Assembly: GCA_001443005.1 (NCBI GenBank)
Contig: LEKQ01000001.1
Span: forward strand, 594,542 to 658,541
Direction: 5' to 3'
DNA from: a bacterium GBS-1
GTDB taxonomy: Bacteria > Synergistota > GBS-1
Length of the DNA: 64,000 bases
The first letter of the stretch is position 1, and every line of letters begins with the position of its first letter. Made by a program: the position numbers and the translations under genes. The notes beneath the pieces are model-generated. The model had not been told where the DNA came from, made no database searches, and worked only from the letters and a program-made list of their open reading frames with translations. This document shows, piece by piece, positions 10,861 through 34,492 of the stretch.

Positions 10861-10870
10861 CTCTCTTCCC

Positions 10871-11410
10871 TCACCCTTTCTTGAATATATCAAAGGCAGC
10901 CCTTAAGGCTTTTAAGTTTAAATCCCTAGTAGCAGGAGGTACCCTATTAAGCATGGCAGCCTCGAGCGATTCCCTTTTTACTATTCCTGTTAATGAGACC
11001 AAAACCCCCAAAGCCACTATGTTCGCAGATAAAGGCTTACCTGTCTCCCTTATGGATATCTCTGTTATAGGAAGCTCGTATATCTCAACGTCAGAGCGAG
11101 GTTTGACCTCCTTGATATAAAGTGTATCAATGATGATTAATCCTCCCTCTTTGACGCTCTCACCGTATTTATCCAGCGCATCTTGAGTCATAGCAAGTAA
11201 TATATCTGGTCTTTCGATCTCTGGGTAGTTTATCTCCTCATCGCTTATGATGATCTCGGACCTACTTGCACCACCTCTTGCCTCGGGACCATAGGACTGA
11301 TTATGCGTAGCGTTCTTTCCCTCATAAATCACCGCAGCCTCCGCAAGGATAATCCCTGCGAGAACCAGACCTTGACCACCGTAACCGCTTAACACTATCT
11401 CCTTCCTCAT
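10871..11410 (-). CDS. 2-oxoacid:ferredoxin oxidoreductase gamma subunit
   Basis: 179 aa; POR/KOR/VOR gamma-type GYGGQG motif. Confidence 0.8.
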   Translation of the reverse strand: MRKEIVLSGYGGQGLVLAGIILAEAAVIYEGKNATHNQSYGPEARGGASRSEIIISDEEINYPEIERPDILLAMTQDALDKYGESVKEGGLIIIDTLYIKEVKPRSDVEIYELPITEISIRETGKPLSANIVALGVLVSLTGIVKRESLEAAMLNRVPPATRDLNLKALRAAFDIFKKG

Positions 11411-13373: not shown

Positions 13374-13597
13374 TCCTCTTCCCCCTCCCGCACCTCAACA
13401 GCATAATCAGGACACCTGAGCTCACAGCTTCTACAACCTACACACATCTCCTCGCGCATAACCCTAACCTTACCATCGCTTGTAAACTCAAAAACCTTCT
13501 TAGGGCAAAACTCTACACATATACCACAAGACTTACACCACTTAGTATTCAGAACAACCTTAAACCTCTTAGTCAAGGCAATCACCCCTTCTTTCAA
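13370..13597 (-). CDS. 2-oxoacid:ferredoxin oxidoreductase delta subunit (2x[4Fe-4S] ferredoxin)
   Basis: 75 aa with two cysteine clusters, CKSCGICVEFCP and CVGCRSCELRCP. Confidence 0.8.
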   Translation of the reverse strand: MKEGVIALTKRFKVVLNTKWCKSCGICVEFCPKKVFEFTSDGKVRVMREEMCVGCRSCELRCPDYAVEVREGEEE

Positions 13598-13602
13598 AGC
13601 GC

Positions 13603-13821
13603 TTAGCCGCCCGACATGATATATGTAACTACTATCTCGTCACCATCCCTAACTATCCTCGAGCTATACTCCCTCCTGGGCAAGACATCCCTATTCAAGA
13701 ACACAGTCATATAAGAGATATCATAACCAAGCTTCTCTAAAAGCTCCCCCACGGTCATCTCACCTTCCAAATTAACTTCCCTATTATTCACCTTAACAAG
13801 CATCTCCTCCATTTCCTCCAA
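13603..13821 (-). CDS. ThiS/MoaD-family small sulfur-carrier-like protein
   Basis: About 66-72 aa ending in GG (…DGDEIVVTYIMSGG); true start probably the ATG giving MLVKVNN... Confidence 0.55.
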   Translation of the reverse strand: MEEMEEMLVKVNNREVNLEGEMTVGELLEKLGYDISYMTVFLNRDVLPRREYSSRIVRDGDEIVVTYIMSGG

Positions 13822-15588: not shown

Positions 15589-16479
15589 TCATAGCAAACC
15601 AAGCCTCCTTAAGCCCTCTTTTATCTTTTCCCTTACCTCTTCGCTCGCTGGTCTGAAGGGTTCTCTCGGATACATCTTTATCCCGCGTAGGTTAACCATG
15701 GTATAAGCTCCTACGGTAGTGGTATTAGCGAGCCTCATAAGGTCTCTAACGGCCATCACCCTATTGTGAACCTCTATCACCTTATCCTTAGGGGCACCGC
15801 TCATCACCACATCATAAAGCTCCTTACAAAGCTCTGGAAAAGCGTTACCCAACCCTGGAATAAAGGCTTTGATGCCCAAAGAGGACGCAGGAACAAACAG
15901 AGCCTCGGTTCCTAAAACCACATCGAAGCCTTCTTTTTCTACCTTTCTCTTGAAATCCGATAGGACCATCAAATCGAAGCTACTATCCTTAACACCATGC
16001 ACACCTATATCCGCCAACCTCTTAAGCAAGCCCACGCTAACGGCATACCCGACAGTTTTGGGATTGTTATAAACATAAACAGGCACATTAACTGCATCAA
16101 CGATTCTTTTGAAATAAAATAAGACATCCTCCTCGGCATGATGATAGTAGAAAGGAGGAACCGCTGAAACAGCATCAGCACCTATCTCCTCAGCGTGTTT
16201 AGCGAGCTCAACAGCATCCCTCGTGCTTATGCTTCCCACATGAACAATAACCGGGACCCTCCCCCCGACCTCCTTCACAATTATCTCCGCAACCCTCTTT
16301 CTCTCCTCGAGGCTAAGCAAAGGTCCGCAGCCATAGGTCCCAAGGATGAAAAGGCCATCCACCGTCCCTAAAAGGAAGCTCGTAAAATCCCTCAAAGCTC
16401 CCTCATCTATATCGCCGTTTGCATCGAAGGGAACGATCATCGGCGGAATTACCCCTCTCAACTGGGTGATACCCATCAA
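15589..16479 (-). CDS. DapA/NAL-family class I aldolase or dehydratase (dihydrodipicolinate synthase family; 2-keto-3-deoxy-acid aldolase-like)
   Basis: 296 aa; GVIPPMIVPF..DGLFILGTYGCGPLLSLEER layout typical of DHDPS/KDG-aldolase family. Confidence 0.8.
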   Translation of the reverse strand: MMGITQLRGVIPPMIVPFDANGDIDEGALRDFTSFLLGTVDGLFILGTYGCGPLLSLEERKRVAEIIVKEVGGRVPVIVHVGSISTRDAVELAKHAEEIGADAVSAVPPFYYHHAEEDVLFYFKRIVDAVNVPVYVYNNPKTVGYAVSVGLLKRLADIGVHGVKDSSFDLMVLSDFKRKVEKEGFDVVLGTEALFVPASSLGIKAFIPGLGNAFPELCKELYDVVMSGAPKDKVIEVHNRVMAVRDLMRLANTTTVGAYTMVNLRGIKMYPREPFRPASEEVREKIKEGLRRLGLL

Positions 16480-16498: not shown

Positions 16499-18028
16499 TC
16501 ATCCCATTGTCTCTTGCAACTCGCTAATCTCCCTAAACTCATCCTGCAGCTTATGATAAATCTTCCAATATATCCTATATAACCTCTCGTATAAAACCCT
16601 TAGCCGCTCATCAGGCTCGATGCAATCGACTAACTGGACGGCCTTGGGAAGGATATCCTCATAGCTTTTTATATACCCAACGCCCCTCATGGCCATAACC
16701 GCTGCACCGAAAGAGGAAGCCTCCTCCATATTAACCCTAACTATTGATCTCCCAAGAACGCTTGATAGAACACCCGCCCAAACTTTAGACCTCATCAAAC
16801 CACCGGTTCCCCTAAGCTCTGTAGGGACGCTAACGACCTCTGAGACCGCCTCATATATACTCCTCATTCGAAAGGCTACACCCTCGATTATCGCCCTCGC
16901 TATATGTCTTCTATCATGGTGAAGCGCAAGACCGAACAAAATTCCTCTAACGTCAGCGTTCCAATAGGGGCCTCTCTCGCCGGTTAAAAAGGGCAAAAGC
17001 AAAAGCCCTCCTGCTCCTGGTTTGACCTCCTGAACCCATCTTTCGGCCTCCCTATAGAGGTCTAGGCCCATTTCTTTCAAATCCTCGTAAAAGCCATCGA
17101 TATACCAAGCCATCACAAGCCCAGCGTTGTTTATGGCGCACCCCACAAGCCAGGTATCCTCATCTAATATGTAACACCACGTTCTTCTTTTCTTATCAGT
17201 CATGGGACCCTTAACGGCCATTCTAACCGCACCGCTCGTTCCGATCATTATAGCCATCTTCCCTTCCCCGATTGAGTTGGAACCTAAAGACGATAAAGCA
17301 CCATCTCCAGCACCTATAACGATGGGAGTTCCCTCCCTTAAACTGGTTATGAGGCTAACTTCCTTAGAGACTTTTCCAACAACGGTTGAGGGGTAAACGG
17401 TCTCGCTCATTTTACCAATACTTATATCGAGGCTATCAAATATGGATTCCTCCCATTTTCTCTTATATATGTTAAGTAAACCGCTACCAGAGGCCACAGA
17501 GATATCGATGGCGAAGACCTTCGCTAAATTCCAAAGAACATACTCCTTTATGGTCATTATCCTATAAGCTTCATCAAGAGCTTGAGGGGTTTCATGCTTA
17601 AACCATATGAGCTTGGCGAGAGGATAGTTCACATGGAGGGGGCAACCTGTAATATCGTAAAGGTAATCAAACCTCTCTCGATAGCTCTTAAGCAGATCGT
17701 TAGACCTATTATCCCCCCAGATAATGAGATTGGTCTTTTTCCTCACATCAGAATCCACTAACATTATGCTGTGAAAAACGCTACTTAAACCTATGGCACC
17801 TATCTCATACTCACCGTTGGCAAGCTCCAAGGATTCCTTTATCGAGCTATATACAGCGGAGACAACCTCGTCAGGATCCTGCTCCACCCAACCAGGCTTA
17901 GGTTGAATAATCCTATAGTTTCTCTTAGCCATCGATATTAATCTTCCATCGCCATCGAAGATACAACATCTCGCCCCGGTTGTTCCTATATCAATACCTA
18001 TGAAAGCCGTCTTAGCCATCATAAACAC
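16499..18028 (-). CDS. FGGY-family carbohydrate kinase
   Basis: N-terminal FIGIDIGTTGARCC and two-domain FGGY layout; about 505 aa. Confidence 0.8.
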   Translation of the reverse strand: MFMMAKTAFIGIDIGTTGARCCIFDGDGRLISMAKRNYRIIQPKPGWVEQDPDEVVSAVYSSIKESLELANGEYEIGAIGLSSVFHSIMLVDSDVRKKTNLIIWGDNRSNDLLKSYRERFDYLYDITGCPLHVNYPLAKLIWFKHETPQALDEAYRIMTIKEYVLWNLAKVFAIDISVASGSGLLNIYKRKWEESIFDSLDISIGKMSETVYPSTVVGKVSKEVSLITSLREGTPIVIGAGDGALSSLGSNSIGEGKMAIMIGTSGAVRMAVKGPMTDKKRRTWCYILDEDTWLVGCAINNAGLVMAWYIDGFYEDLKEMGLDLYREAERWVQEVKPGAGGLLLLPFLTGERGPYWNADVRGILFGLALHHDRRHIARAIIEGVAFRMRSIYEAVSEVVSVPTELRGTGGLMRSKVWAGVLSSVLGRSIVRVNMEEASSFGAAVMAMRGVGYIKSYEDILPKAVQLVDCIEPDERLRVLYERLYRIYWKIYHKLQDEFREISELQETMG

Positions 18029-18043: not shown

Positions 18044-18802
18044 TCAAACTGCCGTCCAGCCTCCGTCCACGAAGATTATCTGACCTGTGATATAAGAAGC
18101 CTCCTTAGAGGCCAAAAAAACCGCAACCCCTTTAAGGTCCTCCAAAGATCCAAACCTACCCAAGGGTATCCTTTTTATCATGCTTTCAAGCCTTTCTCTA
18201 TCGCTGAAGACCGCCTCGGTCATCCTGGTCTTGTACCATCCTGGCGCAATAGCGTTCACCCTTATGCCATACGCCCCCCACTCCTTAGCGAGCGCCTTAG
18301 TTAATGAGCCAACACCGCCCTTTGAAGCAGCATAGGCACATATGTTAGGAACGGTCACCTCAACCACGGTCAAGGAGCAAACGTTGATTATTGAGGGGGA
18401 ATCTGACCTCCTCAGTAATCTAAAAGCCTCCCTACACACGTAAAAGGTCCCAAAGAGATTAACCTCGATTATCTCCCTAAAATCATCGATTGGAAACTCC
18501 TCAGCGGGATACCTCCTATTGATGCCTGCAGCGTTCACAACGACATCAAGCCTACCATAGTTTCTCTCAATATTATCCATTATATTCTTCACTTCATCGT
18601 ATTTCGAGACATCGCATCTTAAGCCCGAAGCTTTAACACCATAGCCTTGACTTATCCTTAGGGCAGTCTCCTTTGCCTCCTCTATGGTCCTGCTAACTAT
18701 CAATACATCGCTTCCCGCCTCGGCGAGCCCCTCAGCGAGAGCCATACCTAATCCCCTTGACCCGCCAGTTACAAGAGAGAGCCTTCCTCTAAGGTTAAAC
18801 AT
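18044..18802 (-). CDS. SDR-family oxidoreductase (KduD/gluconate 5-dehydrogenase-like)
   Basis: TGGSRGLG cofactor motif and YAASKGG catalytic motif. Confidence 0.85.
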   Translation of the reverse strand: MFNLRGRLSLVTGGSRGLGMALAEGLAEAGSDVLIVSRTIEEAKETALRISQGYGVKASGLRCDVSKYDEVKNIMDNIERNYGRLDVVVNAAGINRRYPAEEFPIDDFREIIEVNLFGTFYVCREAFRLLRRSDSPSIINVCSLTVVEVTVPNICAYAASKGGVGSLTKALAKEWGAYGIRVNAIAPGWYKTRMTEAVFSDRERLESMIKRIPLGRFGSLEDLKGVAVFLASKEASYITGQIIFVDGGWTAV

Positions 18803-20276
18803 TTGCCCCCGTTATCCTCCTTCTCCCAAGAATCATTAGCACTATCAATACCCAAAGAATTATACAAATAGGCCTAGTAAAGAAAGGAGTTATGCTTTCA
18901 TTTAACGTCAAAGCCCTTCTTAGGTTCTCATCAGCCATCCTACCCAAAATCAACCCCAGGGTAAATGGAGCGAGAGGATAGCCGTGATTTCTCAGTACGT
19001 AACCTACTAAACCGAAAAGCAAGGTTACGTAGACGTCAAAAATGGAGTGATTCACAGCGTAGGCACCTATAACGCAGAGAGTTATTACTATAGGCATTAA
19101 GATGTCCTTCTTCACCAGCAACACCTTTATAAGTACGTTGCTTATAAGAAGCCCAAAGATAAGAAGCATAAAGTTAGCCAAAACCTGCATAGCAACGTAA
19201 TCATAGAAAAATTGCGGGGACTCAATGAAGATAAGCGGACCTGGCCTTATCCCGTGCAACAATATGCCTCCCAATAAAACGGCAGCAGCTCCGCTACCAG
19301 GTATGCCAAGAGCTATCATCGGAATCGAAGCTCCACCTATGCATGCGTTATTCGCTACCTCACAAGCGATAACCCCTTCCTTGCTCCCCTTACCTATCAT
19401 CTCCCTTTCCACACCGAGATTTTTGACAGCACCATAGCTTACCCAAGCGGCCACATCTTCACCAACGCCAGGAATAACACCGATCAGAATACCTATTATC
19501 GCAGACCTTATGGTCGTCTTCCAGTATCTAAAAACCTCTACTAAGGGAATACTAACCCTGAGCTTCTTAGGATCAACCACTAACTCCCCCTGTTTCGGCT
19601 CCCTCATCACGCAAAAAACCTCGGTTAAACCGAAAAGGCCTATCAAGGCAGGTATCAGAGATATGCCACTCATCAAATTTAGGCTGCCGAAGGTGAACCT
19701 TGGATAGGTGGTCATGTTATCCATACCTATCATAGCGGTCATAAGACCGAGAAAGCCCGTTATCCACCCCTTTAATTGCAACTCACCCATAGACAAGCTT
19801 CCACATATCATCACTCCCATTATGGTCAAAACGAAGAACTCCCAGGAACCAAACTTCAGGGCTATCTTAGCAAGCAAAGGGGTAGAAACAGCCAAGGCTA
19901 AGACGCCTATTAAACCACCCCAGAAGGAAGCTAAACGAGCAAGCCCTAAAGCTTCCCCAGCCATCCCATTCTTAGCTAATTCGTATCCATCTATAGCGGT
20001 AGCTGCAGCTGAAGGGGTACCAGGGATGTTAAGCAAAATGGCACTATTGGATCCTCCATATATACCACCGCAATAGAGAGCTACGAGCATCGGTATGGCA
20101 TATCGAGGGTCCAGACCATAGGTTATACCACTTAAGAGGGCTATACCCATCGTAGCTGTAAGACCAGGTAAAGCCCCGATTATTACCCCAAGGACAGAAG
20201 ATAGTGACATCAAAGATAGCAGCTTTAAGTCAAGAAGACCAACGAAACCATCAAAAAGCCTTAATAAGCTTTCCAC
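18795..20276 (-). CDS. tctA: Tripartite tricarboxylate transporter large permease TctA (copy 1)
   Basis: 493 aa polytopic membrane protein with the GALPGLTATMGIALL motif. Confidence 0.85.
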   Translation of the reverse strand: MESLLRLFDGFVGLLDLKLLSLMSLSSVLGVIIGALPGLTATMGIALLSGITYGLDPRYAIPMLVALYCGGIYGGSNSAILLNIPGTPSAAATAIDGYELAKNGMAGEALGLARLASFWGGLIGVLALAVSTPLLAKIALKFGSWEFFVLTIMGVMICGSLSMGELQLKGWITGFLGLMTAMIGMDNMTTYPRFTFGSLNLMSGISLIPALIGLFGLTEVFCVMREPKQGELVVDPKKLRVSIPLVEVFRYWKTTIRSAIIGILIGVIPGVGEDVAAWVSYGAVKNLGVEREMIGKGSKEGVIACEVANNACIGGASIPMIALGIPGSGAAAVLLGGILLHGIRPGPLIFIESPQFFYDYVAMQVLANFMLLIFGLLISNVLIKVLLVKKDILMPIVITLCVIGAYAVNHSIFDVYVTLLFGLVGYVLRNHGYPLAPFTLGLILGRMADENLRRALTLNESITPFFTRPICIILWVLIVLMILGRRRITGANV

Positions 20277-20300
20277 CTCGATCCCTCCTCAAAGCAGAAC

Positions 20301-20783
20301 TTAGGGCAACCTCACTCCAAGTAAATGTCCAAATGAGTACATCAAGCTCAAACTCACCAAAAGAGCGATCCCGATCGCGACGTGTAGCTTGACACTTTTA
20401 AAGTAAAGATAGGACCCAACTAGATAGAGAAAAGTCGCCAAAGTATAGGGTATCTTCCCCAAAAGAGCAACATAGGCGACCGTTAAAGCTATAAAGACGA
20501 CGAGCCTTTGTGTCTTGAGTCTCTCCTCCCTGCTTCCCTCATTTCTCCCCTTTGACTCCGAGAGGCTCCAACCTTTAAGGTTTCTTTTAAAGATAAACAA
20601 GAGGTAAAACATAAGCGCAGCTGAAAGAACCATAAGAATTGCCGATAAAACTGCGGGGGTAAGACCTGGGGAGTCATGAGGGTCTCCAGTAGGCATCTTT
20701 AGGGATTCAAACAAGCCATAAGCACCGATCAGGAAAACGAAAAGGGCAATCGCAAACTCCCACCACCATCTCTTCCTATCCAT
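20301..20783 (-). CDS. tctB: Tripartite tricarboxylate transporter small subunit TctB (copy 1)
   Basis: 160 aa, four hydrophobic segments, sits between tctC and tctA. Confidence 0.6.
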   Translation of the reverse strand: MDRKRWWWEFAIALFVFLIGAYGLFESLKMPTGDPHDSPGLTPAVLSAILMVLSAALMFYLLFIFKRNLKGWSLSESKGRNEGSREERLKTQRLVVFIALTVAYVALLGKIPYTLATFLYLVGSYLYFKSVKLHVAIGIALLVSLSLMYSFGHLLGVRLP

Positions 20784-20813
20784 CCTGAACTAAATCGCCT
20801 CCCCCTTAAAACA

Positions 20814-20845
20814 GTGCATGGCAGGAGGAAGAACCTGCCATGCAC
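20814..20845 (-). promoter_or_regulatory. Intercistronic stem-loop between tctC and tctB (copy 1): perfect 12-bp inverted repeat, 8-nt loop
   Basis: GTGCATGGCAGG-aggaagaa-CCTGCCATGCAC read directly from the sequence; no downstream U-tract. Confidence 0.5.
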
Positions 20846-20869
20846 CCATCTCTATCTAAGGGTCCAAAC

Positions 20870-21877
20870 TTACTCCGGCTTAGGAATCTTGAAATCCTCA
20901 GGAGATTTCTTCGCAAGCTTCAACTCATGTAAGAGCCAGCTAACCAAAGATGTCTCTCTCTTAGCGTACTCCTCAGACTTCTGCCTATCATAGCCAAGAT
21001 AAACCATGGCCTGCTTCTGTACGAACTCCTTGAACTTAGGAGACTGAACGGCCTTAGCGTATGCCTTATCTATCGCATCTACAACCTCTTGAGGAACATC
21101 CCTAGGAACTGCTATGCCCCACCAACCACCGAAAGGTAGATATTTCTTAATATCAGGAGCCCACTTCGCCACAGTGGGAACCTTACCTACGCCCTCTATC
21201 TCAATATCCTCGTCATTGAACGTCGCAAGGATCCTAAGCTGGCCACCCTTTATCAAATCTATGGCCTCCATTAAGCCTGGAATTCCCGCTTTCGTCTCCC
21301 CTGCCACAGCCGCGGCAGCAGCCGCACGACCGCTGGGATAAACCACTATCTTAAAGTCCCCTCCAACAGATTTCTTAAGCATCTCCAAAGCTATATGCCA
21401 CCCGTTGGCTATACCAGAGTTAGCAAGGGTTAAGTCCTTCCCCATCTCCTTCATAGCCTTAATGAAATCATCCATGGTCTTTATGGGAGAATCGGGCTTA
21501 ACGCATATGGTCGCTACACCAGCAGCAGCGATCCACATATGAAAGTCCTTATAAGAGAAGGGACCAAGGTCCATCACCTGATACATCCTTATGTTATCTG
21601 AGAGTCCTAACCAAATATAACCATCATGAGGCTGACCCATGACGTAAGCTGTCGCAACAGCTCCAGTGGCCCCAGGCATATTTATGACATTAATAGGAAC
21701 CCCTAGGATCTGCTGCATCTCTGCCGCCAATGCTCTATTGACCTGGTCTGTTGCTCCACCCGCACCGAACTGAACTATAACGGTTATAGGTCTCGTTGGA
21801 TAGGCAGCCCATCCCATACCTGCGAAGACACCCACGAACAAGCCCAACACCGCCAACATAACAAGAGCCTTCTTCAT
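20870..21877 (-). CDS. tctC: Tripartite tricarboxylate transporter substrate-binding protein TctC (Bug family; copy 1)
   Basis: Signal peptide followed by AAYPTRPITVIVQFGAGGATD Bug-family motif. Confidence 0.85.
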   Translation of the reverse strand: MKKALVMLAVLGLFVGVFAGMGWAAYPTRPITVIVQFGAGGATDQVNRALAAEMQQILGVPINVINMPGATGAVATAYVMGQPHDGYIWLGLSDNIRMYQVMDLGPFSYKDFHMWIAAAGVATICVKPDSPIKTMDDFIKAMKEMGKDLTLANSGIANGWHIALEMLKKSVGGDFKIVVYPSGRAAAAAAVAGETKAGIPGLMEAIDLIKGGQLRILATFNDEDIEIEGVGKVPTVAKWAPDIKKYLPFGGWWGIAVPRDVPQEVVDAIDKAYAKAVQSPKFKEFVQKQAMVYLGYDRQKSEEYAKRETSLVSWLLHELKLAKKSPEDFKIPKPE

Positions 21878-21901
21878 CTTTCTTCCCCCCTTTAGATTAA
21901 T

Positions 21902-21919
21902 TTCTTAAAGCTTTAAGAA
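21902..21919. promoter_or_regulatory. Perfect 18-bp palindrome TTCTTAAAGCTTTAAGAA just upstream of the tctC (copy 1) Shine-Dalgarno; candidate operator
   Basis: Read directly; near-identical palindrome lies in the same position upstream of tctC copy 2. Confidence 0.4.
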
Positions 21920-21954
21920 CCTCTTCCTTTTCACATCACCTCCCTCTACGGCTT

Positions 21955-23109
21955 TTACATGGCAGATCTGCATATCTGGATCAGATCTTCCAAGGTAGGA
22001 GTTCTCGGATTAATGGGTATCCCAACGTTACTCATCGCCTCACGACATATATCTTCAATGGCATCCTCTTTGACGCCTACCTCTCTTAGCCCTGCCGGTA
22101 TACCCACATCTCTACACAAAGCCTTTACCGCCTCAACCGCCCTACGTGCAGCCTGAAGCTCCGTAAGACCGGAAACGCTCTCTCCCAACGCTTCAGCTAT
22201 CTTAGCAAACTTAGAAAGGTTGCCAATGAGATTAAACTCCATACCATAGGGTAATAGGATAGCGTTTATCACACCATGAGGCACGTCGAAGTACCCACCC
22301 ATAACAGCTGTGATAGCGTGAATAACGCCCAAGCGCGTATTTGCGAAAGCCAAGGCTGCCATCGTGCTTCCTAAGAGCATGTTATAGCGAGCTTCAATAT
22401 TATCCCCCTTAGCATAGGCAGCCCTCAGATACTTTCCAATAAGATAGATAGCGTGATAGGCAAGCGACTCCGATATAGGCTCAGTTACAACGTTCGTGAA
22501 GGACTCTATAGCGTGAGTTAGAGCATCTAAACCAGTAGCAGCGGTCACGCTTGGCGGCATACTCAAGGTTAGAAGGGGGTCGCAAACCGCAATGTGAGGA
22601 GCGATCTTAGGATTACCTATGCCCATCTTAACTTTCTTCTTGGTATCCTTTATCACCGTCACCCAAGTTATCTCGCTACCTGTGCCAGCCGTAGTAGGAA
22701 CGGCAATGAGAGGAAGTATCCTGTTCTTCGGAGGGTTCTTCCAAAAGTAGGCTATCTCCCCCTCGTTAGTTAAAAGTAGACCGATCGCCTTAGCGGTGTC
22801 TATCGAGCTTCCTCCCCCAATCGCCAATAGGAGATCACACCCAAACTCCCGAGCAACTTTAACTCCCTCCTCGACTATCTCAACCGTCGGATTAGGCTCA
22901 ACTTTAGAGAAAACCTCAGTTCTAAAGCCAGCAATATCCAACTTGGCCTTTATGCCATTTACGATGTTCGTGCACATCAATCCCGGATCCGTAACTATTA
23001 AGACGCTCTTTCCGCCCAGTTCGTTAACCCTGTCTACTATTTTTTCGGCCTCTCCTATCCCAAAATACAACTTAGTCGGAATCTGCCAAACGAAGGGCTT
23101 AACAAACAT
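21955..23109 (-). CDS. Iron-containing alcohol dehydrogenase (Fe-ADH family)
   Basis: 384 aa; GGGSSIDTAKAIG motif and Fe-ADH layout. Confidence 0.85.
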   Translation of the reverse strand: MFVKPFVWQIPTKLYFGIGEAEKIVDRVNELGGKSVLIVTDPGLMCTNIVNGIKAKLDIAGFRTEVFSKVEPNPTVEIVEEGVKVAREFGCDLLLAIGGGSSIDTAKAIGLLLTNEGEIAYFWKNPPKNRILPLIAVPTTAGTGSEITWVTVIKDTKKKVKMGIGNPKIAPHIAVCDPLLTLSMPPSVTAATGLDALTHAIESFTNVVTEPISESLAYHAIYLIGKYLRAAYAKGDNIEARYNMLLGSTMAALAFANTRLGVIHAITAVMGGYFDVPHGVINAILLPYGMEFNLIGNLSKFAKIAEALGESVSGLTELQAARRAVEAVKALCRDVGIPAGLREVGVKEDAIEDICREAMSNVGIPINPRTPTLEDLIQICRSAM

Positions 23110-23325
23110 GCTATCCCCCCTCTATACTTTATTATTGTGATAATATCATCCATCCAAACAAATCTATCCTTATCCGCCAACGGAACAACATTCGCTATTT
23201 CTAAATGATATCTTAACATAAGCACCCGACAGCGTCAAGCCATGTTCGTATACCCAGTATGCTTGGATTAATGGTAATACCTCAACTATTTCGCATATAG
23301 GAGAATCTTTTAGATTCTCTCTATC

Positions 23326-24795
23326 TTAGTCCTTTAATTTACGCACCACCTTCCAAATAGATGGTCCTAAAAGGGTTAAAACTATAAGAGAAAACAAGAT
23401 TAAAGATATGGGACGGGTTAGGAAAGGGATAATGCTACCACCTGACTTTATAAGCCCTATACGGAGATTGTCCTCGATCATCCTACCAAGGATTAGAGCT
23501 AAAACCATTGGAGCAAGAGGCATGTTTATTTTCTCCATAACGTAGCCGAGTAAGCCAAACAGCGCCATTAGCCATATATCGAAGACGCTGTTTCTTATGG
23601 CGTAGGAGCCTACCATGGAAAACAGAACCACAGCACTCATAACTACACCTGCTCTAAGGCTAACCAAGCGAGAAAAGGCCTTTATCCCCAGCCACCCAAC
23701 CGGTAAAAGCATTATCTGCACCAGCAGGGCTACAGCGAAAATCTGATATACCAAATCCTTAGATTGAGCGAAGATGAGCGGTCCAGGCTTCAAGCCATAC
23801 ATCAGCATAGCGCCTAGGACTATCGCAGTTATAGAATCGCCAGGTATCCCCAGTGCCAGTGCAGGGATCCAAGTTCCACCTATAGCAGCATTATTCGCAC
23901 TGGTTGGAGCTATAACGCCACGGGGGCTACCGGAACCTATCTCATTACCACTAAGGCTTTTTTCCGCTCCATAGGCAACCCATGCAGCGATGTCCGCCCC
24001 CGCTCCAGGAAGAGCACCTATGAAAGTCCCTATCAAAGAGCTCCTTATTATAATGAACTTATTGCGATACATAAGCTTTAAAGCCTCAAGCACATCCAAC
24101 TTCCCATTGATTTTAACGCTTGGTAAGTCCAAGCTCTCCCTAAAGGACAATCTCTTCAATACCTCGGAAATTCCAAAAAGTCCTATCATAGCTGGGATAA
24201 AGCTAACACCATCCATCAGCTCCGTGATCCCAAAGGTAAACCTGGGATATCCCGTGGTGACATCTATACCTATGGTAGATATGAGAAGCCCAAACAAGGC
24301 TGAAAGAAGCCCCTTGATGGTATTACCTCTACTTAAAACGGCAGCCATGCTTAAACCAAAGACCCCCAACCAGAAATACTCGAAGTGCGTGAACTTCAAG
24401 GCTACCTCAGCTAACGGGGGAGCAGTGAAGATCAATATCAAAACCCCTATCAATCCTCCAAGAGCAGAACAGAAGAGATCCAAAGTTAAGGCTAAAGCTC
24501 CTTTACCCTTCTTATTCATCTCAAAGCCATCTAAAACCGCTGCCCCAGAGGCTGGCGTACCCGGAATCCTTAAGAAGGTCGCGGGAATATCGCCTGCAAA
24601 TATGGCGGTGAAGGAAACACCTATAACCATAGCCAAACCCGTTAGGGGCTCCATGTAATAGGTCAATGGTATTATGAGAGCTACGGCCATCGTAGCCGTA
24701 AGGCCAGGCATAGCGCCCACGAAAACGCCAAAGGCCATTGAAAGCAAAAGCGGAAAAAGAACCTTTAAGGAAAGGATGGATAAAAGATAAGACAT
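23326..24795 (-). CDS. tctA: Tripartite tricarboxylate transporter large permease TctA (copy 2)
   Basis: 489 aa; GAMPGLTATMAVALI motif; paralog of copy 1. Confidence 0.85.
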   Translation of the reverse strand: MSYLLSILSLKVLFPLLLSMAFGVFVGAMPGLTATMAVALIIPLTYYMEPLTGLAMVIGVSFTAIFAGDIPATFLRIPGTPASGAAVLDGFEMNKKGKGALALTLDLFCSALGGLIGVLILIFTAPPLAEVALKFTHFEYFWLGVFGLSMAAVLSRGNTIKGLLSALFGLLISTIGIDVTTGYPRFTFGITELMDGVSFIPAMIGLFGISEVLKRLSFRESLDLPSVKINGKLDVLEALKLMYRNKFIIIRSSLIGTFIGALPGAGADIAAWVAYGAEKSLSGNEIGSGSPRGVIAPTSANNAAIGGTWIPALALGIPGDSITAIVLGAMLMYGLKPGPLIFAQSKDLVYQIFAVALLVQIMLLPVGWLGIKAFSRLVSLRAGVVMSAVVLFSMVGSYAIRNSVFDIWLMALFGLLGYVMEKINMPLAPMVLALILGRMIEDNLRIGLIKSGGSIIPFLTRPISLILFSLIVLTLLGPSIWKVVRKLKD

Positions 24796-24802
24796 CTACA
24801 CT

Positions 24803-25294
24803 CTACCCCCTTAAGAGTGAAAATATAACTCCCTCAGGTAAGGGTAGCTTAAATATAACCTTGAAAATCCAATGGATTAACAAAGCCAAGACTACAGAAT
24901 AAACTAGAGATGAAAACCACCTAACTCTCATAAATCGCATTAGGAAAACTCCCAAGAGCGTTATACCAATCACGCTTCCGAAAATCTTCAGAACCGGGTA
25001 AAAGAGAAACCCCACACCTATGATAATTACGAAGCTCAAGCTTTTATATAAGCTGACGCCTTTAAATAGCGATGATCTCAATTCCTCCCTCGCTTTAAAT
25101 AGAGAGGTCAAACCAGATACAAAAAAGTAAAAACCAAAGATCAAGATCAAAAAAGCTAAGAGATCCGGGAAAAAGCTCGGTCCAGGCAACTTTTCCCCTC
25201 TTACCGTAAACTTCGGGAAAAACCTGGAATGGTAAAAAACGAAGCCTGATAAAGCGAAACAGCTCAAACTCAATATAAGGTCACTCCACCCCAT
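24803..25294 (-). CDS. tctB: Tripartite tricarboxylate transporter small subunit TctB (copy 2)
   Basis: 163 aa hydrophobic protein in the tctCBA position. Confidence 0.6.
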   Translation of the reverse strand: MGWSDLILSLSCFALSGFVFYHSRFFPKFTVRGEKLPGPSFFPDLLAFLILIFGFYFFVSGLTSLFKAREELRSSLFKGVSLYKSLSFVIIIGVGFLFYPVLKIFGSVIGITLLGVFLMRFMRVRWFSSLVYSVVLALLIHWIFKVIFKLPLPEGVIFSLLRG

Positions 25295-25320
25295 TTAGCC
25301 ACAATCCCCCTTTAAAGGCG

Positions 25321-25350
25321 GGGCAAGCTCGTGGGAACGAGCTTGCCCCA
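25321..25350 (-). promoter_or_regulatory. Intercistronic stem-loop between tctC and tctB (copy 2): perfect 12-bp inverted repeat, 6-nt loop
   Basis: GGGGCAAGCTCG-tgggaa-CGAGCTTGCCCC; same position and architecture as copy 1. Confidence 0.5.
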
Positions 25351-25362
25351 AAGAGAATACCT

Positions 25363-26337
25363 TTACTTCTTAAGATATCCGCCTAGCTCGAGAACCGTCT
25401 TCCAAGCTTTATCCTGCTCCTCAACGAATTTCCTGAACTCCTCTCCCCTTCTTACCTTTATACCAAAGCCATTGGTTTCCATGAACTTCTTGAAAGCTTC
25501 AGAGTTAGCTATCTCAATAATGGCATCCTCGAGCTTCTTCTTTATCTCAGCAGGGGTTCCTTTAGGAACACCCACACCCCTCCACGTACCAGCGCTCCAG
25601 TTAATACCGAGCTCCTTTAAGGTCGGTACATCTGGGAATGCAGGAAGCCTCTCATCGGCCATAACAGCGAGAGCTCGAGCCTGACCGCTCTTTATATAAG
25701 GAGCGGCTTCCGCCAACGAACAGGTAACCACGTGGACATGCCCACCTAAAAGCTCGGTCAAAGCTTGAGCAGCGCCCGTGGTAGACGGAATCCACTTAAC
25801 GGAATCCACAGGCAAACCAGCAGCGTGAAGCATACCTATCCTAGCTAAATCCCATATCCCACCCGCTGCGACGCCGGAGAAAAGAAGCTTACCTGGATTA
25901 GCCTTTATATCGTCCAGTAGCTCCTTGAGATTCTTCCATGGGGCATCGGCCTTGACCGTTACTCCTGCAGCATCCTCGTTAACCTGAGCTATATAGTCGA
26001 AAGCCTCATAGGTTAGGTCCGTGAGGCCCATCCAGTGCATTGTGGCTAACTCCAATGTCACGATGGTTATGGTGTATCCGTCTGGGGGTGCATAAGCACC
26101 AGCGGCGTGCCCCACCGCTCCACCGCCACCCGTTTTGTTAACCACAGTGAAGGGCTGACCAAACTTCTTAGAAAGCTCATCTGCCAAAAATCGAGCAAGC
26201 CTGTCGGTGCCCCCACCAGCACCCCAAGGACAGATAACCGTAACCGCCTTCTCTGGATAGGCCGCCCACGCGCTTAAGGTAAAGACCCACGTAAACCCCA
26301 TAACCGCCAAAACTACCACCCATAAAAGCTTCTTCAT
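25363..26337 (-). CDS. tctC: Tripartite tricarboxylate transporter substrate-binding protein TctC (Bug family; copy 2)
   Basis: Signal peptide followed by AAYPEKAVTVICPWGAGGGTD Bug-family motif. Confidence 0.85.
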   Translation of the reverse strand: MKKLLWVVVLAVMGFTWVFTLSAWAAYPEKAVTVICPWGAGGGTDRLARFLADELSKKFGQPFTVVNKTGGGGAVGHAAGAYAPPDGYTITIVTLELATMHWMGLTDLTYEAFDYIAQVNEDAAGVTVKADAPWKNLKELLDDIKANPGKLLFSGVAAGGIWDLARIGMLHAAGLPVDSVKWIPSTTGAAQALTELLGGHVHVVTCSLAEAAPYIKSGQARALAVMADERLPAFPDVPTLKELGINWSAGTWRGVGVPKGTPAEIKKKLEDAIIEIANSEAFKKFMETNGFGIKVRRGEEFRKFVEEQDKAWKTVLELGGYLKK

Positions 26338-26350
26338 TTTGAAACCCCCT

Positions 26351-26366
26351 TTCTTAAATTTAAGAA
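26351..26366. promoter_or_regulatory. Perfect 16-bp palindrome TTCTTAAATTTAAGAA abutting the tctC (copy 2) Shine-Dalgarno; candidate operator
   Basis: Read directly; shares the TTCTTAAA / TTTAAGAA half-sites with 21902-21919. Confidence 0.4.
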
Positions 26367-26523
26367 GCTTTGCTTAAAAAGCAAATATTACCAGTTTCAC
26401 CTCCTTCCTTATGTTAAACTCTCTGTTTAAAGTATAGCAAAAGAAGAACCATCTTTCGAGATCTCCAAAACCTTTTCGGGAAAAGATGTGCTGAAAAAAT
26501 CTCTTAAATTTTTTAGTCTATTC

Positions 26524-26997
26524 TTAAAAGCACCTTTTTCTGAGATTAAACCTTCTTAAAATGGGCAGAAACATGCCTCCAACGAGAGCTAACGCCCCAA
26601 GAGCGCCGGGCCTGGAGGAGATTTCACAACCGCCGCACCACCAGTCAAAGTCAACCCTTATGCTACGAGGCCCCCACCATGTAGAATGACCGTATTCATC
26701 CTCAACCTTAACGCATACATCGTACCACCCCTCGTACCACACCCTATACCATAGAGTGTCGCTCCACTCCACCTCAACGCCATTCACATACCATGTATAG
26801 TAAATGTAATCACCATCAGGATCATAGGCTTCAACGCGCCCCTTTATGATCGCATATTCATCACACCAATCGTATTCGTAATAATCCACATCCAACCAAA
26901 CGTTCGTTATTATAGGAGGCGAGTTCTGCCCCAAAGCATATCCAGATATACATAAGAGCAAGACAAGGGAAACAAGCGATATCTTAAGCCCCTTCAA
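26524..26997 (-). CDS. Small secreted W/Y-rich PKD-like domain protein with a C-terminal hydrophobic/basic tail
   Basis: N-terminal signal peptide (MKGLKISLVSLVLLLCISGYALG); DPDGDYIYYTWYVNG PKD-like core; tail CGGCEISSRPGALGALALVGGMFLPILRRFNLRKRCF; 4-nt overlap with upstream gene. Confidence 0.5.
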   Translation of the reverse strand: MKGLKISLVSLVLLLCISGYALGQNSPPIITNVWLDVDYYEYDWCDEYAIIKGRVEAYDPDGDYIYYTWYVNGVEVEWSDTLWYRVWYEGWYDVCVKVEDEYGHSTWWGPRSIRVDFDWWCGGCEISSRPGALGALALVGGMFLPILRRFNLRKRCF

Positions 26998-28232
26998 ATG
27001 AAACTTCCTCCCTTAGCGCGTTCCATCAAATCAAGGAGAACTTCAACCACCTTTTGAGCAAACTCAGGATCATTTATGTTGTTATCGAGCTCGTAAACTG
27101 GTATCCCAGGTCTAAGATTAGCCTTTATCGAATCGAAGCAAGCCCTATCAGCCTCAGGATCCCAGAAGGCTTGACCAGGACTGTCAAGCATGGAAACACC
27201 CTTTAGCGGTATAAGCACGGCCACCGGCCCCTTGCTTTCGTTCGCCGCCCTAGCTATCCACTCCCCTATGGCTTTGTTTTCTTCAACGTTCGTCCTAACC
27301 AAGGTGACATTAGGATTCCACTCGTATATCTTTCTGCCCCTATACTTCTCCGGAACCGTATCTTTCGCCCAGAAATTGATCATATCGACACAACCCGGAA
27401 CTAAAACGGCAGGGATACCTCTTCTTGCAGCAGCAAAGAGCCTATCCTTCCCCGCCGATAGAACCCCTCCACCTATCTCATCAGCTAACTCCGTAGTCGT
27501 TATATCAGCCACAGCTGAAACCAAGCCCTGATCAATGAGCATCTCCATGGTTCTCCCACCGGTCCCAGTAGCGTGAAACACCAGTATCTCAAAGCGATCG
27601 CCCAAAAGCTCTTTAACCTTCTCGACGCACGGTGTCGTGTTCCCAAACATGCTTATAACTATAACTGGCTTCTCAGGCTCCTTAAGCATCTCCTCATAGG
27701 CACCATGCTCAAGCATCCCCGCGAGCGCCCCCACGGCGTTCTTATAAATCGCCCTGCTAATCCTATTTAAGCCAGCCACATCAACTATTGAGGGAAACAT
27801 CACTATATCCTTAATCCCAACATATCGAGATACATCTCCACCAGCAACCGTAGACACCATCACCTTAGGAATACCTATGGGCAAAGCTTGCATGGCCGTT
27901 GTGGCTATTATGGTCCCAGCGCTTCCTCCCATACCAAGTATGCCATGAAGATTCCCTTCATCATATAACCTCCTAACTACCTCCTTAAGCCCCTTGGTCA
28001 TCGTATCCATCGCTAAGCTCTTATCCTTTTTCGCCTGGAGCTCCTCTATGCTCACTCCCCCCGCCTTTGCCACCTCTGCCCTCGTTATATCTGGTTCGAA
28101 GAAGGGCTTCCCCATCACACCAAAATCAACCACAATAACCTCAAAACCAGAGCTCTTGAGCAGATCCCTAACGTAGGCAAAATCCTGCCCTTTGGTATCT
28201 AAGGCACCGACTAAAACAACCTTCTTAGTCAT
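26994..28232 (-). CDS. Tm-1-like / UPF0261-family protein
   Basis: 412 aa; N-terminal MTKKVVLVGALDTKG and overall resemblance to UPF0261; recognised from memory of the family. Confidence 0.6.
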   Translation of the reverse strand: MTKKVVLVGALDTKGQDFAYVRDLLKSSGFEVIVVDFGVMGKPFFEPDITRAEVAKAGGVSIEELQAKKDKSLAMDTMTKGLKEVVRRLYDEGNLHGILGMGGSAGTIIATTAMQALPIGIPKVMVSTVAGGDVSRYVGIKDIVMFPSIVDVAGLNRISRAIYKNAVGALAGMLEHGAYEEMLKEPEKPVIVISMFGNTTPCVEKVKELLGDRFEILVFHATGTGGRTMEMLIDQGLVSAVADITTTELADEIGGGVLSAGKDRLFAAARRGIPAVLVPGCVDMINFWAKDTVPEKYRGRKIYEWNPNVTLVRTNVEENKAIGEWIARAANESKGPVAVLIPLKGVSMLDSPGQAFWDPEADRACFDSIKANLRPGIPVYELDNNINDPEFAQKVVEVLLDLMERAKGGSFI

Positions 28233-28247
28233 ACTATCCTCCCTCCC

Positions 28248-29087
28248 CTAACGAGCAAGCCTCAGCGACTTAAAGGCCTCAACCTGCGCTTTTATCGCCC
28301 TCTCTGTAGGCAGGCGCTCGATGCTTGAAGCGCCAAAGAACCCCACGACACCAGGCATCATCGCAAGAGCCTTACCCACATTCTCAGGCTCATCGAAAGG
28401 CCCTCCATGGCATATCACCAGTATATCCTTTCTAACTCTCTTAGCAGCTTCAGCGATAGACATCACCTTCTCAACGGCTTGCTCCAAGGTCATGGCCACA
28501 CCAGCTCCTATCGTACCACCGGTAGTTAAACCAACATGAGCAACGATAACATCAGCACCAGCCTTAACCATCTCAACGGCCTGGTCCTCATCAAACACAT
28601 AGGGTGTGGTAAACATATCAAGCTCATGAGCTATCCTTATCATCTCGATCTCCTTATCATACCCCATACCTGTGGCCTCAAGGTTAGCCCTGAAGTTACC
28701 GTCAATTAGACCAACAGTTGGGAAGTTCTGAACGCCGGAGAAACCCATTTCCTTAAGCTCCCTTAAGAAAACGGGCATAAGCCTAAAGGGATCTGTGCCG
28801 CAAACGCCAGCCAAAACAGGGGTGTTTTTCACAACCGGCAAGACCTCCCTCGCCATCTCAACAACTATAGCGTTAGCATCACCATAGGGCATAAGACCCG
28901 CTAGGGAACCTCTCCCACCCATCCTGAATCGACCAGAATTATAGATAACTATCAGATCTATTCCACCAGCCTCAGCCATCTTCGCGGATATCCCTGTTCC
29001 AGCTCCACCACCCACTATGGGCCTTCCAGCCTCGATCTGAGCGTGAAGGCGAGCTAATATTTCTTCCCTCGTAAAACCGATCTTCAT
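28248..29087 (-). CDS. PEP hydrolase-like TIM-barrel protein (usual partner of UPF0261)
   Basis: About 280 aa; start set to the ATG (MKIGF...) preceded by GGAGGTG; track ORF extends to a GTG at 29096. Confidence 0.6.
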
Positions 29088-29124
29088 TAGCAACACCTCC
29101 CTTAAAAAAATCTTTTCTGACTAT

Positions 29125-34394: not shown

Positions 34395-34422
34395 ATTAAG
34401 GTAAGTAAAGCGCTTTCTCTCC

Positions 34423-34462
34423 AAAAGGTGGTGTCGCTAGCTTGAACGACACCACCTTTTTA
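34423..34462 (+). terminator. Rho-independent terminator or attenuator after the TAXI binding-protein gene
   Basis: AAGGTGGTGTCG-ctagcttgaa-CGACACCACCTT followed by TTTTTA; a third AAAGCGCTTT box lies at 34407-34416 just upstream. Confidence 0.6.
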
Positions 34463-34492
34463 TAATTTTACAGATGAGGGGGAATTAAGGGT

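Follow-up and report, generated by a model that had tools for sequence, protein, structure and literature searches.

Two operons of the same kind that stand one behind the other pose a simple question: is one a copy of the other, and what would a cell import through both of them? The question is raised here by a stretch of 64,000 nucleotides from the genome of a GBS-1 bacterium of the Synergistota (contig LEKQ01000001.1; this whole stretch is referred to as the window, and all positions are counted within it). On its minus strand a seven-gene array runs from 26337 to 18795 and consists of tctC-tctB-tctA, a gene for an iron-containing alcohol dehydrogenase (Fe-ADH) and a second tctC-tctB-tctA. 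The tct genes specify tripartite tricarboxylate transporters (TTT), and we refer to the upstream system as TTT-1 and to the downstream one as TTT-2. The explanation that accounts best for the data, and to which we assign a probability of about 0.6, is that two old TTT systems have been juxtaposed, that they form two units and that they probably import acid sugars.

Two complete importers in one array

The array was recognized from the list of open reading frames (ORFs) and from Pfam searches, in which all seven proteins scored over the gathering cut-offs, well outside what chance would give. TTT-1 comprises tctC-1 (25363-26337), encoding a periplasmic solute-binding protein of 324 aa (PF03401, E=3e-53), tctB-1 (24803-25294), encoding a small membrane subunit of 163 aa (PF07331, E=7e-13), and tctA-1 (23326-24795), encoding a large membrane subunit of 489 aa (PF01970, E=6e-140, profile positions 2-423 of 423). 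The corresponding genes of TTT-2 are tctC-2 (20870-21877; 335 aa, PF03401, E=8e-26), tctB-2 (20301-20783; 160 aa, PF07331, E=1e-16) and tctA-2 (18795-20276; 493 aa, PF01970, E=5e-142). Between the two sets lie a non-coding gap of 216 bp (23110-23325) and the gene for Fe-ADH (21955-23109; 384 aa, PF00465 and PF25137, E~1e-53). The bit scores were 181.6 for TctC-1 and 91.7 for TctC-2 against a gathering cut-off of 27, 49 and 61 for the two TctB proteins against a cut-off of 29, and 467 and 474 for the two TctA proteins, both of which cover the full length of the profile. Gene order is C-B-A in both systems, each has all of the structural features that define the TTT family (TC 2.A.80), and both TctC proteins begin with a hydrophobic, signal-like N-terminus that ends in WAAYP. 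The minus strand carries every gene between 13.9 and 29.1 kb. A sequence-only reading of this DNA had described two complete tctCBA sets in tandem inside a catabolic array, and the ORFs and their Pfam matches bear this out: the array is two independent, complete TTT secondary importers side by side.

The junction between TTT-1 and the Fe-ADH gene recurs in six or more contigs that were assembled independently from samples of Great Boiling Spring (77 C) as well as in an ENA assembly, and the Fe-ADH protein is encoded on 15 contigs in all. Since the same junction appears in independent assemblies, it is not an assembly artefact or a chimera. The assignment of the host to the Synergistota agrees with the names carried by near-identical proteins.

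The two systems are anciently diverged

The sequence-only reading also held that one system had been duplicated head-to-tail. A recent tandem duplication should leave copies that are each other's closest relatives, and this is not what is found. TctC-1 and TctC-2 are 32% identical, TctA-1 and TctA-2 are 45% identical and no similarity is detectable between TctB-1 and TctB-2, whereas the TctC and TctA proteins of each system are 54-94% identical to orthologues in other lineages and phyla. For TTT-1, identities to the related Synergistota metagenome-assembled genome (MAG) L023 are 88% for TctC, 80% for TctA and 54% for TctB; those to L020, a Pseudothermotoga-like locus, are 82% for TctC and 72% for TctA, and those to Petrotoga and Aminivibrio are 63-65% for TctC and 60-65% for TctA. 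For TTT-2 the closest loci are L018 and L022 (TctC 87-94%, TctA 86-88%, TctB 56-60%), and then L007 and L009 (TctC 63-64%, TctA 74-76%) and Synergistales 54_24 (TctC 54%, TctA 59%); TctB-2 is 38-42% identical to its counterparts in L007, L009 and L014. Nor is the tandem arrangement common to close relatives, which have TTT-1 alone or TTT-2 alone at these loci. The low mutual identity, the closer orthologues elsewhere and the separate loci in relatives together argue for juxtaposition and against duplication. On these sequence comparisons, the two systems are to be regarded as ancient paralogues, separately inherited from anciently diverged TTT subfamilies, and their adjacency as a derived, lineage-specific rearrangement.

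The two subfamilies also differ in size and in their signature residues. The TctC-1 family is large and strongly conserved, with a mean column identity of 72% over 29 diverse members; it is widespread in Thermotogota and Synergistota and includes hundreds of members that are 60-90% identical, metagenomes included. The TctC-2 family is small: 11 clusters share at least 53% identity and the next ones no more than 39%, and a profile search of one genome from each of 185,579 species returned 5 loci, the window's own species not being among them. The closest solved structure for both TctC proteins is 25HK, with 39% identity to TctC-1 and 31% to TctC-2; proteins that bind citrate, amino acids or dicarboxylates come after it. 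An invariant GGWWG in the TctC-2 group takes the place of the GTWRG of TctC-1 and 25HK.

Some further features of these proteins may be recorded. Most TctC-2 orthologues possess a lipobox (consensus LAGCS) followed by a linker of 15-20 residues and are hence predicted lipoproteins; the TctC-2 of the window, unlike most of them, is free of cysteine and has a plain signal peptide. A C-terminal tail, SPEDFxIPKP, is conserved in the TctC-2 group and is not present in TctC-1. TTT-1 is closer to the Pseudothermotoga-like loci (72-82%) than to mesophilic Synergistota (60-63%).

The gap between the systems is a synteny breakpoint

L018 and L022 are about 72-73% identical in nucleotide sequence to the window and colinear with it over 10 kb. 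The order in both is that of the window: Fe-ADH, tctCBA-2, a short-chain dehydrogenase/reductase (SDR), an FGGY kinase, an aldolase of the dihydrodipicolinate synthase (DHDPS) family, an IlvD/EDD-family dehydratase, a ThiS-like protein, a ferredoxin, a 2-oxoacid:ferredoxin oxidoreductase and an acyl-CoA synthetase. On the 5' side of Fe-ADH they have an SDF symporter, an aminotransferase or a DJ-1 gene and TTT-1 is absent; in L018 a strong terminator hairpin with an 11-bp stem lies between the SDF gene and Fe-ADH. L023 retains the other flank. It keeps the upstream anchor of the window, namely CN_hydrolase, UvrD/PcrA, CoaE, EamA and a homologue of a 157-aa secreted protein, and its tctCBA-1 comes after cas6-cas1-cas2 and precedes a molybdopterin oxidoreductase gene and csm genes of type III-A. 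The genes downstream of tctCBA-1 are the same in L104-106 and L024. TTT-1 is thus the sole TTT system at its locus in L023, L024 and L104-106, as TTT-2 is in L018 and L022. Two related MAGs hold both TctC types, with protein accession numbers 519 apart.

Colinearity with L022 stops at window position 23118, 9 bp upstream of the Fe-ADH ATG, and colinearity with L023 resumes at 23351, within the 3' end of tctA-1. Because colinearity ends on both sides of the 216-bp gap, the sequence alignments mark this gap (23110-23325) as the synteny breakpoint, the junction at which the TTT-1 module would have been joined to the Fe-ADH/TTT-2 operon.

The setting of tctCBA-1 in the nearest relatives, L023 and L104-L106, is an odd one for a transporter operon, between cas6-cas1-cas2 and a type III-A csm operon. 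With cas6-cas1-cas2 goes a non-coding stretch of about 1.1 kb that is probably a CRISPR array, the molybdopterin oxidoreductase gene converges on tctA, and in L023 a gene of the 2-phosphosulfolactate-phosphatase family is located near TTT-1.

Fe-ADH heads the second operon

The two systems had been described as separated only by Fe-ADH. This gene is 87-88% identical and keeps its position in L018 and L022, and an orthologue with 65% identity stands beside the TTT-2 orthologue in L009. Judged by this conservation, Fe-ADH is no spacer but a member of the TTT-2 operon, of which it is the first gene. Its sequence does not reach any NCBIfam equivalog cut-off, choline dehydrogenase and lactaldehyde reductase being the best matches, and the closest PDB entries are NAD-dependent methanol dehydrogenase, 1,3-propanediol oxidoreductase and FucO.

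The promoters, and any co-regulation of the two units, we infer. In the 216-bp gap there is a candidate promoter, TTGACG-17-TAAGAT, TG-extended, at 23238-23210, and a good ribosome-binding site, GGGGGG, upstream of Fe-ADH. Fe-ADH very probably starts its own transcription unit, probably from a promoter in this gap, as the sequence-only reading had thought possible. That reading had also called the region AT-rich; its length of 216 bp is as described, and its AT-richness is moderate rather than striking (37.5% G+C against 45.7% for the whole window). The 186-bp gap 5' of tctC-1 (26338-26523) is more AT-rich, with 31.7% G+C, and holds a second candidate, TCGAAA-17-TATACT, also TG-extended, at 26459-26431, which is a consensus match only. 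The gene just upstream of this gap, which encodes the secreted, PKD-like protein, is unrelated to metabolism, and for this reason tctCBA-1 is treated as a unit of its own, probably transcribed from a promoter within the 186 bp. A third candidate, with 11/12 matches, lies 5' of a PEP-hydrolase-like gene at 29154-29125.

An RNA element was considered for both gaps. The RNA of the 216-nt gap has a predicted fold of -54 kcal/mol, somewhat more stable than that of shuffled sequence (z=-2.56; 1 in 200 shuffles was as good), and that of the 186-nt gap folds no better than shuffled sequence (z=-0.05). A 7-bp hairpin, GAGAATC-TAAAA-GATTCTC, is found just past the stop codon of tctA-1. An Rfam scan of the entire window yielded no riboswitch or other RNA family. 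The regions upstream of Fe-ADH in the relatives do not align beyond the ribosome-binding site and contain no alignable homologue of the 216-nt gap that could reveal covariation, and we make no claim for an RNA element. An origin of the gaps from a repeat or mobile element was likewise rejected, both sequences being unique in the window and among all of the loci, the same population excepted.

The TTT-2 operon resembles a hexonate pathway

The 3' end of tctA-2 overlaps the start of the SDR gene (18044-18802, minus strand; 252 aa) by 8 bp, so that TTT-2 is translationally coupled to an enzyme of the hexonate 5-dehydrogenase or keto-uronate reductase type. The overlap is present in four lineages, those of the window, L014, L018 and L022, and this conservation speaks for the imported compound being a substrate of the SDR. 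Thermotoga maritima TM0441, whose structure was deposited as gluconate 5-dehydrogenase (PDB 1VL8), is 71% identical to the SDR over 251 aa. The best NCBIfam match of the SDR is gluconate 5-dehydrogenase, with 250 bits, just under the cut-off of 279. On gene order, TM0441 is presumably uxaD. The galacturonate locus of T. maritima in which it lies reads gnd-uxaE-uxaD-gntE-gntK (PMC3750489), and in the route proposed there mannonate arises from fructuronate by reduction, and the gluconate formed from it by epimerisation is phosphorylated (see PMC6978723). Taken together with the pattern of TTT-1 identities described above, the 71% identity of the SDR to TM0441 suggests that genes may have been exchanged between thermophilic Thermotogota and Synergistota.

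Three more minus-strand genes complete the set. The FGGY kinase (16499-18028; 509 aa) is gluconokinase-like: its best NCBIfam match is gntK_FGGY, 389 bits and below the cut-off of 649, its closest PDB entry is the gluconate kinase 3GBT (253 bits, compared with 167 for xylulokinase), and all of its named homologues are called gluconokinase, including one in Pseudothermotoga thermarum with 57% identity. The DHDPS-family class I aldolase (15589-16479; 296 aa, PF00701) resembles aldolases that cleave 2-keto-3-deoxygluconate (KDG) or its 6-phosphate (KDPG). In NCBIfam it matches NanA, DapA and archaeal KDG aldolase, in each case with a score under the cut-off. Its identity to the aldolases that stand beside TTT-1 and TTT-2 orthologues elsewhere is 40-53% (40-46% for the TTT-1 partners), and that to the DapA-like genes of L018 and L022 only 25%. 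The IlvD/EDD-family protein (13897-15552; 551 aa, PF00920 and PF24877) is a putative sugar-acid dehydratase. With 581 bits it misses the ilvD cut-off of 618, and its PDB matches rank dihydroxyacid dehydratase above L-arabinonate dehydratase and 6-phosphogluconate dehydratase. A second IlvD/EDD gene within 15 kb (349-2094, minus strand) passes the ilvD cut-off with 775 bits. By these scores the gene at 349-2094 is the true housekeeping IlvD and that at 13897-15552 a catabolic paralogue. The operon thus possesses an SDR of the hexonate 5-dehydrogenase or fructuronate reductase type and, at the family level only, the dehydratase and 2-keto-3-deoxy-acid aldolase expected of an operon like that of the Entner-Doudoroff (ED) pathway.

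The surroundings of the more distant TTT-2 orthologues (L007, L009 and L014) are similar in kind and contain SDR, IlvD/EDD, FGGY, DHDPS or 2-dehydro-3-deoxygalactonokinase (DGOK), aldehyde:ferredoxin oxidoreductase (AOR), LarA-like, 2-hydroxyacid dehydrogenase and Fe-ADH genes. Their enzymes are 38-53% identical to those of the window, with the exception of Fe-ADH (65%). By analogy with these contexts, the ligand of TTT-2 would be a 5-keto-hexonate or a hexonate.

These observations may be assembled into a route, whose ligands and order of steps we infer. TctC-2 would bind a periplasmic 5-keto-hexonate or hexonate of the group that includes fructuronate, 5-ketogluconate, gluconate and mannonate, and TctA-2 and TctB-2 would import it at the expense of an ion gradient. 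The coupled SDR, probably catalysing the first catabolic step, would reduce the ligand to a hexonate, which the gluconokinase-like kinase, the dehydratase or both would convert to a 2-keto-3-deoxy(-6-phospho)hexonate. The aldolase would then produce pyruvate and glyceraldehyde(-3-P). Pyruvate would be oxidised by a ferredoxin-dependent oxidoreductase and fermented to acetate, with ATP formed by way of the acyl-CoA synthetase that is encoded just downstream.

The region 3' of the TTT-2 operon (5892-13800, minus strand) encodes a ThiS-like protein, a ferredoxin, a three-subunit 2-oxoacid:ferredoxin oxidoreductase, a two-subunit, ADP-forming, succinyl-CoA-synthetase-like ligase, a D-2-hydroxyacid dehydrogenase and a tungsten-type AOR. 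This block is a fermentative "lower pathway" directly downstream of the operon. Its start (the ThiS-like, ferredoxin, oxidoreductase subunit and first ligase genes) is kept in L018 and L022, whose loci end there.

TTT-1 belongs to a family associated with KDG metabolism

For TTT-1 the evidence comes from its orthologues. Metagenome contigs were scanned with a TctC-1 profile, the neighbouring ORFs were called and clustered and their representatives were annotated, which gave 52 dereplicated loci; the span considered runs from 5 genes upstream to 8 genes downstream of tctC. An aldolase of the DHDPS, Eda or HpcH type is found within this span in 27 of the 52 loci and a PfkB or DGOK kinase in 23, and co-localisation is seen in almost all of the loci with at least 62% identity and enough flank. 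The commonest layouts are RpiR-DHDPS-PfkB-PfkB-tctCBA, Eda-tctCBA and HpcH-IclR-DHDPS-DGOK-FAH-tctCBA-Eda-PfkB. In Pseudothermotoga the arrangement is Eda-tctCBA, and in Petrotoga UxaC, UxaE, DHDPS and two PfkB genes accompany tctCBA and IclR. The neighbouring PfkB proteins have as their best match a kinase of KDG or 2-keto-3-deoxygalactonate (KDGal), and the Eda proteins pass the curated cut-off. Dehydratases are outside the conserved core of these loci, which suggests that the imported compound enters metabolism at the 2-keto-3-deoxy level. By analogy, then, the ligand of TTT-1 would be KDG, KDGal or a very close acid sugar. The compounds brought in by the two systems may enter at different levels and converge on one aldolase step. 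PfkB, DGOK and Eda were not found in the annotated part of the window (1-47.6 kb; the rest was not scanned), where the only aldolase of this kind is the DHDPS-type enzyme of the TTT-2 operon. A literature search returned nothing directly relevant on TTT with KDG in Thermotogae, on Synergistetes at Great Boiling Spring or on uxaXYZ.

The two subfamilies are paired elsewhere

In another metagenomic lineage (L073, L075, positions 562-10345, and L076), members of both subfamilies are again found in one locus, with the order IclR-tctCBA(TTT-2-like)-GFO/IDH/MocA oxidoreductase-2-hydroxyacid dehydrogenase-HpcH-tctCBA(TTT-1-like)-Eda-PfkB-SDR. The TTT-2-like proteins are 51% (TctA) and 31% (TctC) identical to those of the window, and the TTT-1-like system is 62% identical. 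That the pairing has occurred in an independent lineage argues mildly for a functional rationale. One may go further and propose, tentatively, that there are two new TTT specificity classes: the TctC-1 family would be an importer of free KDG or KDGal that is widespread among thermophiles and anaerobes, and the first KDG-binding TTT, the rare TctC-2 family with its GGWWG motif would serve 5-keto-hexonates or hexonates, and the pairing would be a selected design in which two importers supply one ED-like aldolase trunk at two levels of oxidation and dehydration. If this were true, a hot-spring fermenter could scavenge intact acid sugars together with the breakdown products generated from them by heat or by neighbours.

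The sequence-only reading had suggested that the two systems take up two related carboxylates or two stereoisomers. Two different but related acid sugars are probable; a pair of stereoisomers does not fit with TctC proteins that are 32% identical and have different conserved partners.

TTT transporters are abundant, but the ligands of only a few are known, and those of thermophilic anaerobes have hardly been studied. Should the assignments hold, they would provide concrete ligand classes for the TctC-1 family (KDG-type acids) and the TctC-2 family (keto-hexonates or hexonates) and improve the annotation of sugar-acid scavenging in hot-spring and digester communities. Predictions of TTT systems in acid-sugar loci already exist (PMC5507952), and for alginate oligosaccharides such a system has been demonstrated (PMC13390454), so that what the locus adds is two ligand hypotheses and a corrected reading. 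It is otherwise ordinary, with no new protein families, unusual architecture or unexplained sequence feature. It also carries a caution: operons of like name in tandem need not be duplicates, and a gene that appears to lie between them may head the second.

Weighing the alternatives

Several observations weigh against the reading that two juxtaposed old systems, in two units, import acid sugars. Neither in this window nor in the nearest relatives does a KDG kinase or aldolase stand next to TTT-1, so that its link with KDG is borrowed by analogy from orthologues that are 60-82% identical. The substrate assignments for both systems draw on neighbourhoods and on family matches, most of the latter below equivalog cut-offs. 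The IlvD/EDD, FGGY and SDR proteins of L007 and L009 are only 38-48% identical to those of the window, and these loci may handle a different acid sugar. The LarA homologue of the window matches malate racemase best, and not a hexonate epimerase. Fe-ADH, which has no step in the proposed route, could reduce an aldehyde product or oxidise a polyol acid. Between 13.9 and 29.1 kb no regulator gene is encoded, a TctDE-type two-component system included; such a regulator is not universal in the TTT family. The positions of the candidate promoters and terminators are plausible, but such sites are about as numerous in shuffled sequence (27 promoter-like sites compared with 22.9 expected). Finally, a terminator scan revealed nothing convincing 3' of tctA-1, and read-through from TTT-1 into the second operon is possible.

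The idea that one tctCBA set was copied in place and then diverged toward related carboxylates or stereoisomers draws on the adjacency of the systems, their common gene order and strand and the shared WAAYP ending of the TctC N-termini, and it is highly improbable in view of the identities given above, the far closer orthologues in other lineages and phyla, the separate loci in relatives and the loss of colinearity on both sides of the intergenic gap. Import of citrate or isocitrate by one or both systems, in the manner of Salmonella TctCBA or Bordetella BctCBA, is what the Pfam family names imply, and the downstream succinyl-CoA-synthetase-like ligase and 2-oxoacid:ferredoxin oxidoreductase could serve acids of the tricarboxylic acid cycle. 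We consider it very unlikely: a TctDE-type regulator, citrate lyase and aconitase are absent from the cluster, sugar-acid enzymes are the conserved partners of both orthologue groups, and BugD, BugE, Bug27 and other dicarboxylate binders are more distant in sequence from the TctC proteins than 25HK is. On their conserved gene context, both systems most likely import acid sugars rather than citrate.

Organosulfonates deserve separate consideration. A TTT could take up sulfolactate, as SlcHFG does, or a sulfo-sugar acid; the IlvD/EDD protein could act as a sulfogluconate dehydratase, the aldolase release sulfolactaldehyde and Fe-ADH or AOR convert it, before desulfonation by way of the Ldh_2, split GD_AH (SuyAB-like) and LarA genes at 2046-5876. 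The Ldh_2 protein encoded there has L-sulfolactate dehydrogenase as its best NCBIfam match (329 bits), the GD_AH dehydratase consists of two separate proteins, an SAF protein of 102 aa and another of 385 aa, an architecture like that of the sulfolactate sulfo-lyase SuyAB, Fe-ADH matches the sulfoacetaldehyde reductase SarD (303 bits), and L023 has the phosphosulfolactate-phosphatase-family gene near TTT-1. These scores are, however, far under the curated cut-offs of 500 and 700, respectively, and the GD_AH protein matches only galactarate dehydratase (253 bits, cut-off 731). A 6-sulfo acid would offer no C6 hydroxyl to a gluconokinase-like kinase, the SDR is akin to a Thermotoga uronate-pathway enzyme, the neighbourhoods of the orthologues hold KDG kinases and Eda and no sulfonate genes, and no sulfite-handling genes were seen in the window. 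We regard this scheme as quite unlikely, and sulfolactate, which the sequence-only reading had named as a candidate ligand, is not favoured, since every match to a sulfo-related family is below its curated cut-off. A further alternative, that the adjacency is a neutral by-product of rearrangement and that the TTT-1 ligand has nothing to do with the pathway downstream, is possible, and we judge it somewhat doubtful. In the closest relatives TTT-1 stands alone among CRISPR-Cas, phosphoenolpyruvate carboxykinase and molybdopterin-oxidoreductase genes, the breakpoint is within an intergenic gap and a promoter-like site is present in the AT-rich gap upstream of each unit. On the other side, the TctC-1 family is consistently tied elsewhere to aldolases and kinases of 2-keto-3-deoxy (KD) acids, the TTT-2 operon possesses just such an aldolase, 40-46% identical to the partners of that family, an independent lineage joins TTT-2-like and TTT-1-like systems in one sugar-acid locus, and no clear terminator follows tctA-1.

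Neighbouring genes

Upstream of the array, on the minus strand at 26994-29096, a gene pair encodes a 412-aa UPF0261 protein and a 282-aa TIM-barrel protein of the PEP-hydrolase-like kind (PF09370), which correspond to the two halves of plant Tm-1. UPF0261 has recently been shown to be an ATP-dependent kinase, MarK (PMC12624787). The pair is missing in L023, in which a 163-aa homologue of the 157-aa ORF comes directly after EamA, and in the window it looks like an insertion. This 157-aa ORF (26524-26997, minus strand) begins with TTG, has no Pfam match and overlaps the UPF0261 stop codon by 4 bp; its product has a signal peptide, a PKD-like middle part rich in Trp, Tyr and Asp (DPDGD) and, at the C-terminus, a hydrophobic segment with a basic tail, LPILRRFNLRKRCF, that suggests a sorting or anchor signal. 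The ORF is kept beside EamA in L023.

At 2046-5876 (minus strand) are encoded a LarA-like nickel-pincer racemase, the Ldh_2 dehydrogenase and the split enzyme of the altronate/galactarate-dehydratase family (SAF and catalytic proteins), for which malate or tartrate, sulfolactate or another 2-hydroxy acid are candidate substrates. On the plus strand, 33393-36370 encodes a TAXI-type tripartite ATP-independent periplasmic (TRAP) transporter, consisting of an NMT1_3 binding protein and a fused DctQM membrane protein; this is the third binding-protein-dependent secondary carboxylate importer within 64 kb.

Comparison with known systems

With the founders of the family (TC 2.A.80), Salmonella TctCBA and Bordetella BctCBA, the systems described here have in common the domains PF03401, PF07331 and PF01970, the C-B-A order and a secreted binding protein. 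They differ from these citrate transporters in the lack of a TctDE-like regulator and in a context of sugar-acid rather than tricarboxylate metabolism, and among solved structures both TctC proteins resemble 25HK, which binds alginate oligosaccharides, more than those that bind citrate, aspartate or glutamate. The ligands of TTT are known to extend well beyond tricarboxylates (PMC5812351; PMC13390454). 25HK is the TTT-C protein of an alginate utilisation locus in Vibrio sp. C42; it binds unsaturated alginate oligosaccharides and demonstrates by experiment that a TTT can carry uronate-type carbohydrate acids whose catabolism ends in KDG, KDPG and an aldolase (PMC13390454). In an alignment, TctC-1 keeps Gly20, Gly24, Thr25, Asp26, Thr225 and Arg227 of the site proposed for 25HK, along with its GTWRG motif and G-x3-GTD loop, and differs from it at Pro104, Ser164, Glu165 and Gly183; in TctC-2, GGWWG also replaces GTWRG. 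We considered assigning ligands by means of these residues and set this aside as too weak, the Vibrio site having been defined by docking and mutagenesis. Unlike the Vibrio locus, the present one has no alginate lyases nearby.

Sugar-acid TTT have been predicted in Halomonas, where a TctABC is assigned to galactarate and glucarate, and in Salinivirga, where a galactonate TTT is found beside dgoK (PMC5507952). As in these cases, a TTT operon is embedded among acid-sugar genes and its ligand is deduced from context, and DGOK and KD-acid aldolases accompany the TctC-1 orthologues. The Halomonas and Salinivirga loci are from mesophilic Proteobacteria and Bacteroidota and have GntR or IclR regulators, whereas this locus is from an anaerobe living at about 77 C, has no regulator and presents two TTT in a row. 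The T. maritima gnd-uxaE-uxaD-gntE-gntK module is matched by the SDR with its 71% identity to TM0441, by the gluconokinase-like FGGY gene next to it and by a LarA-family gene in the array. Unlike that module, the present one has IlvD/EDD and a DHDPS-type aldolase, in an ED-like arrangement, in place of Gnd, it has neither UxaE nor UxaC in the window, and uptake is by TTT and not by the ABC system AguEFG. SlcHFG of Roseovarius nubinhibens is reportedly a sulfolactate TTT. It resembles the systems described here in that a TTT lies near Ldh_2-family and SuyAB-like genes. In the window, however, the sulfonate-related genes are 13-20 kb from the transporters, all sulfonate matches are below cut-off and the contexts of the orthologues point to KDG and hexonates.

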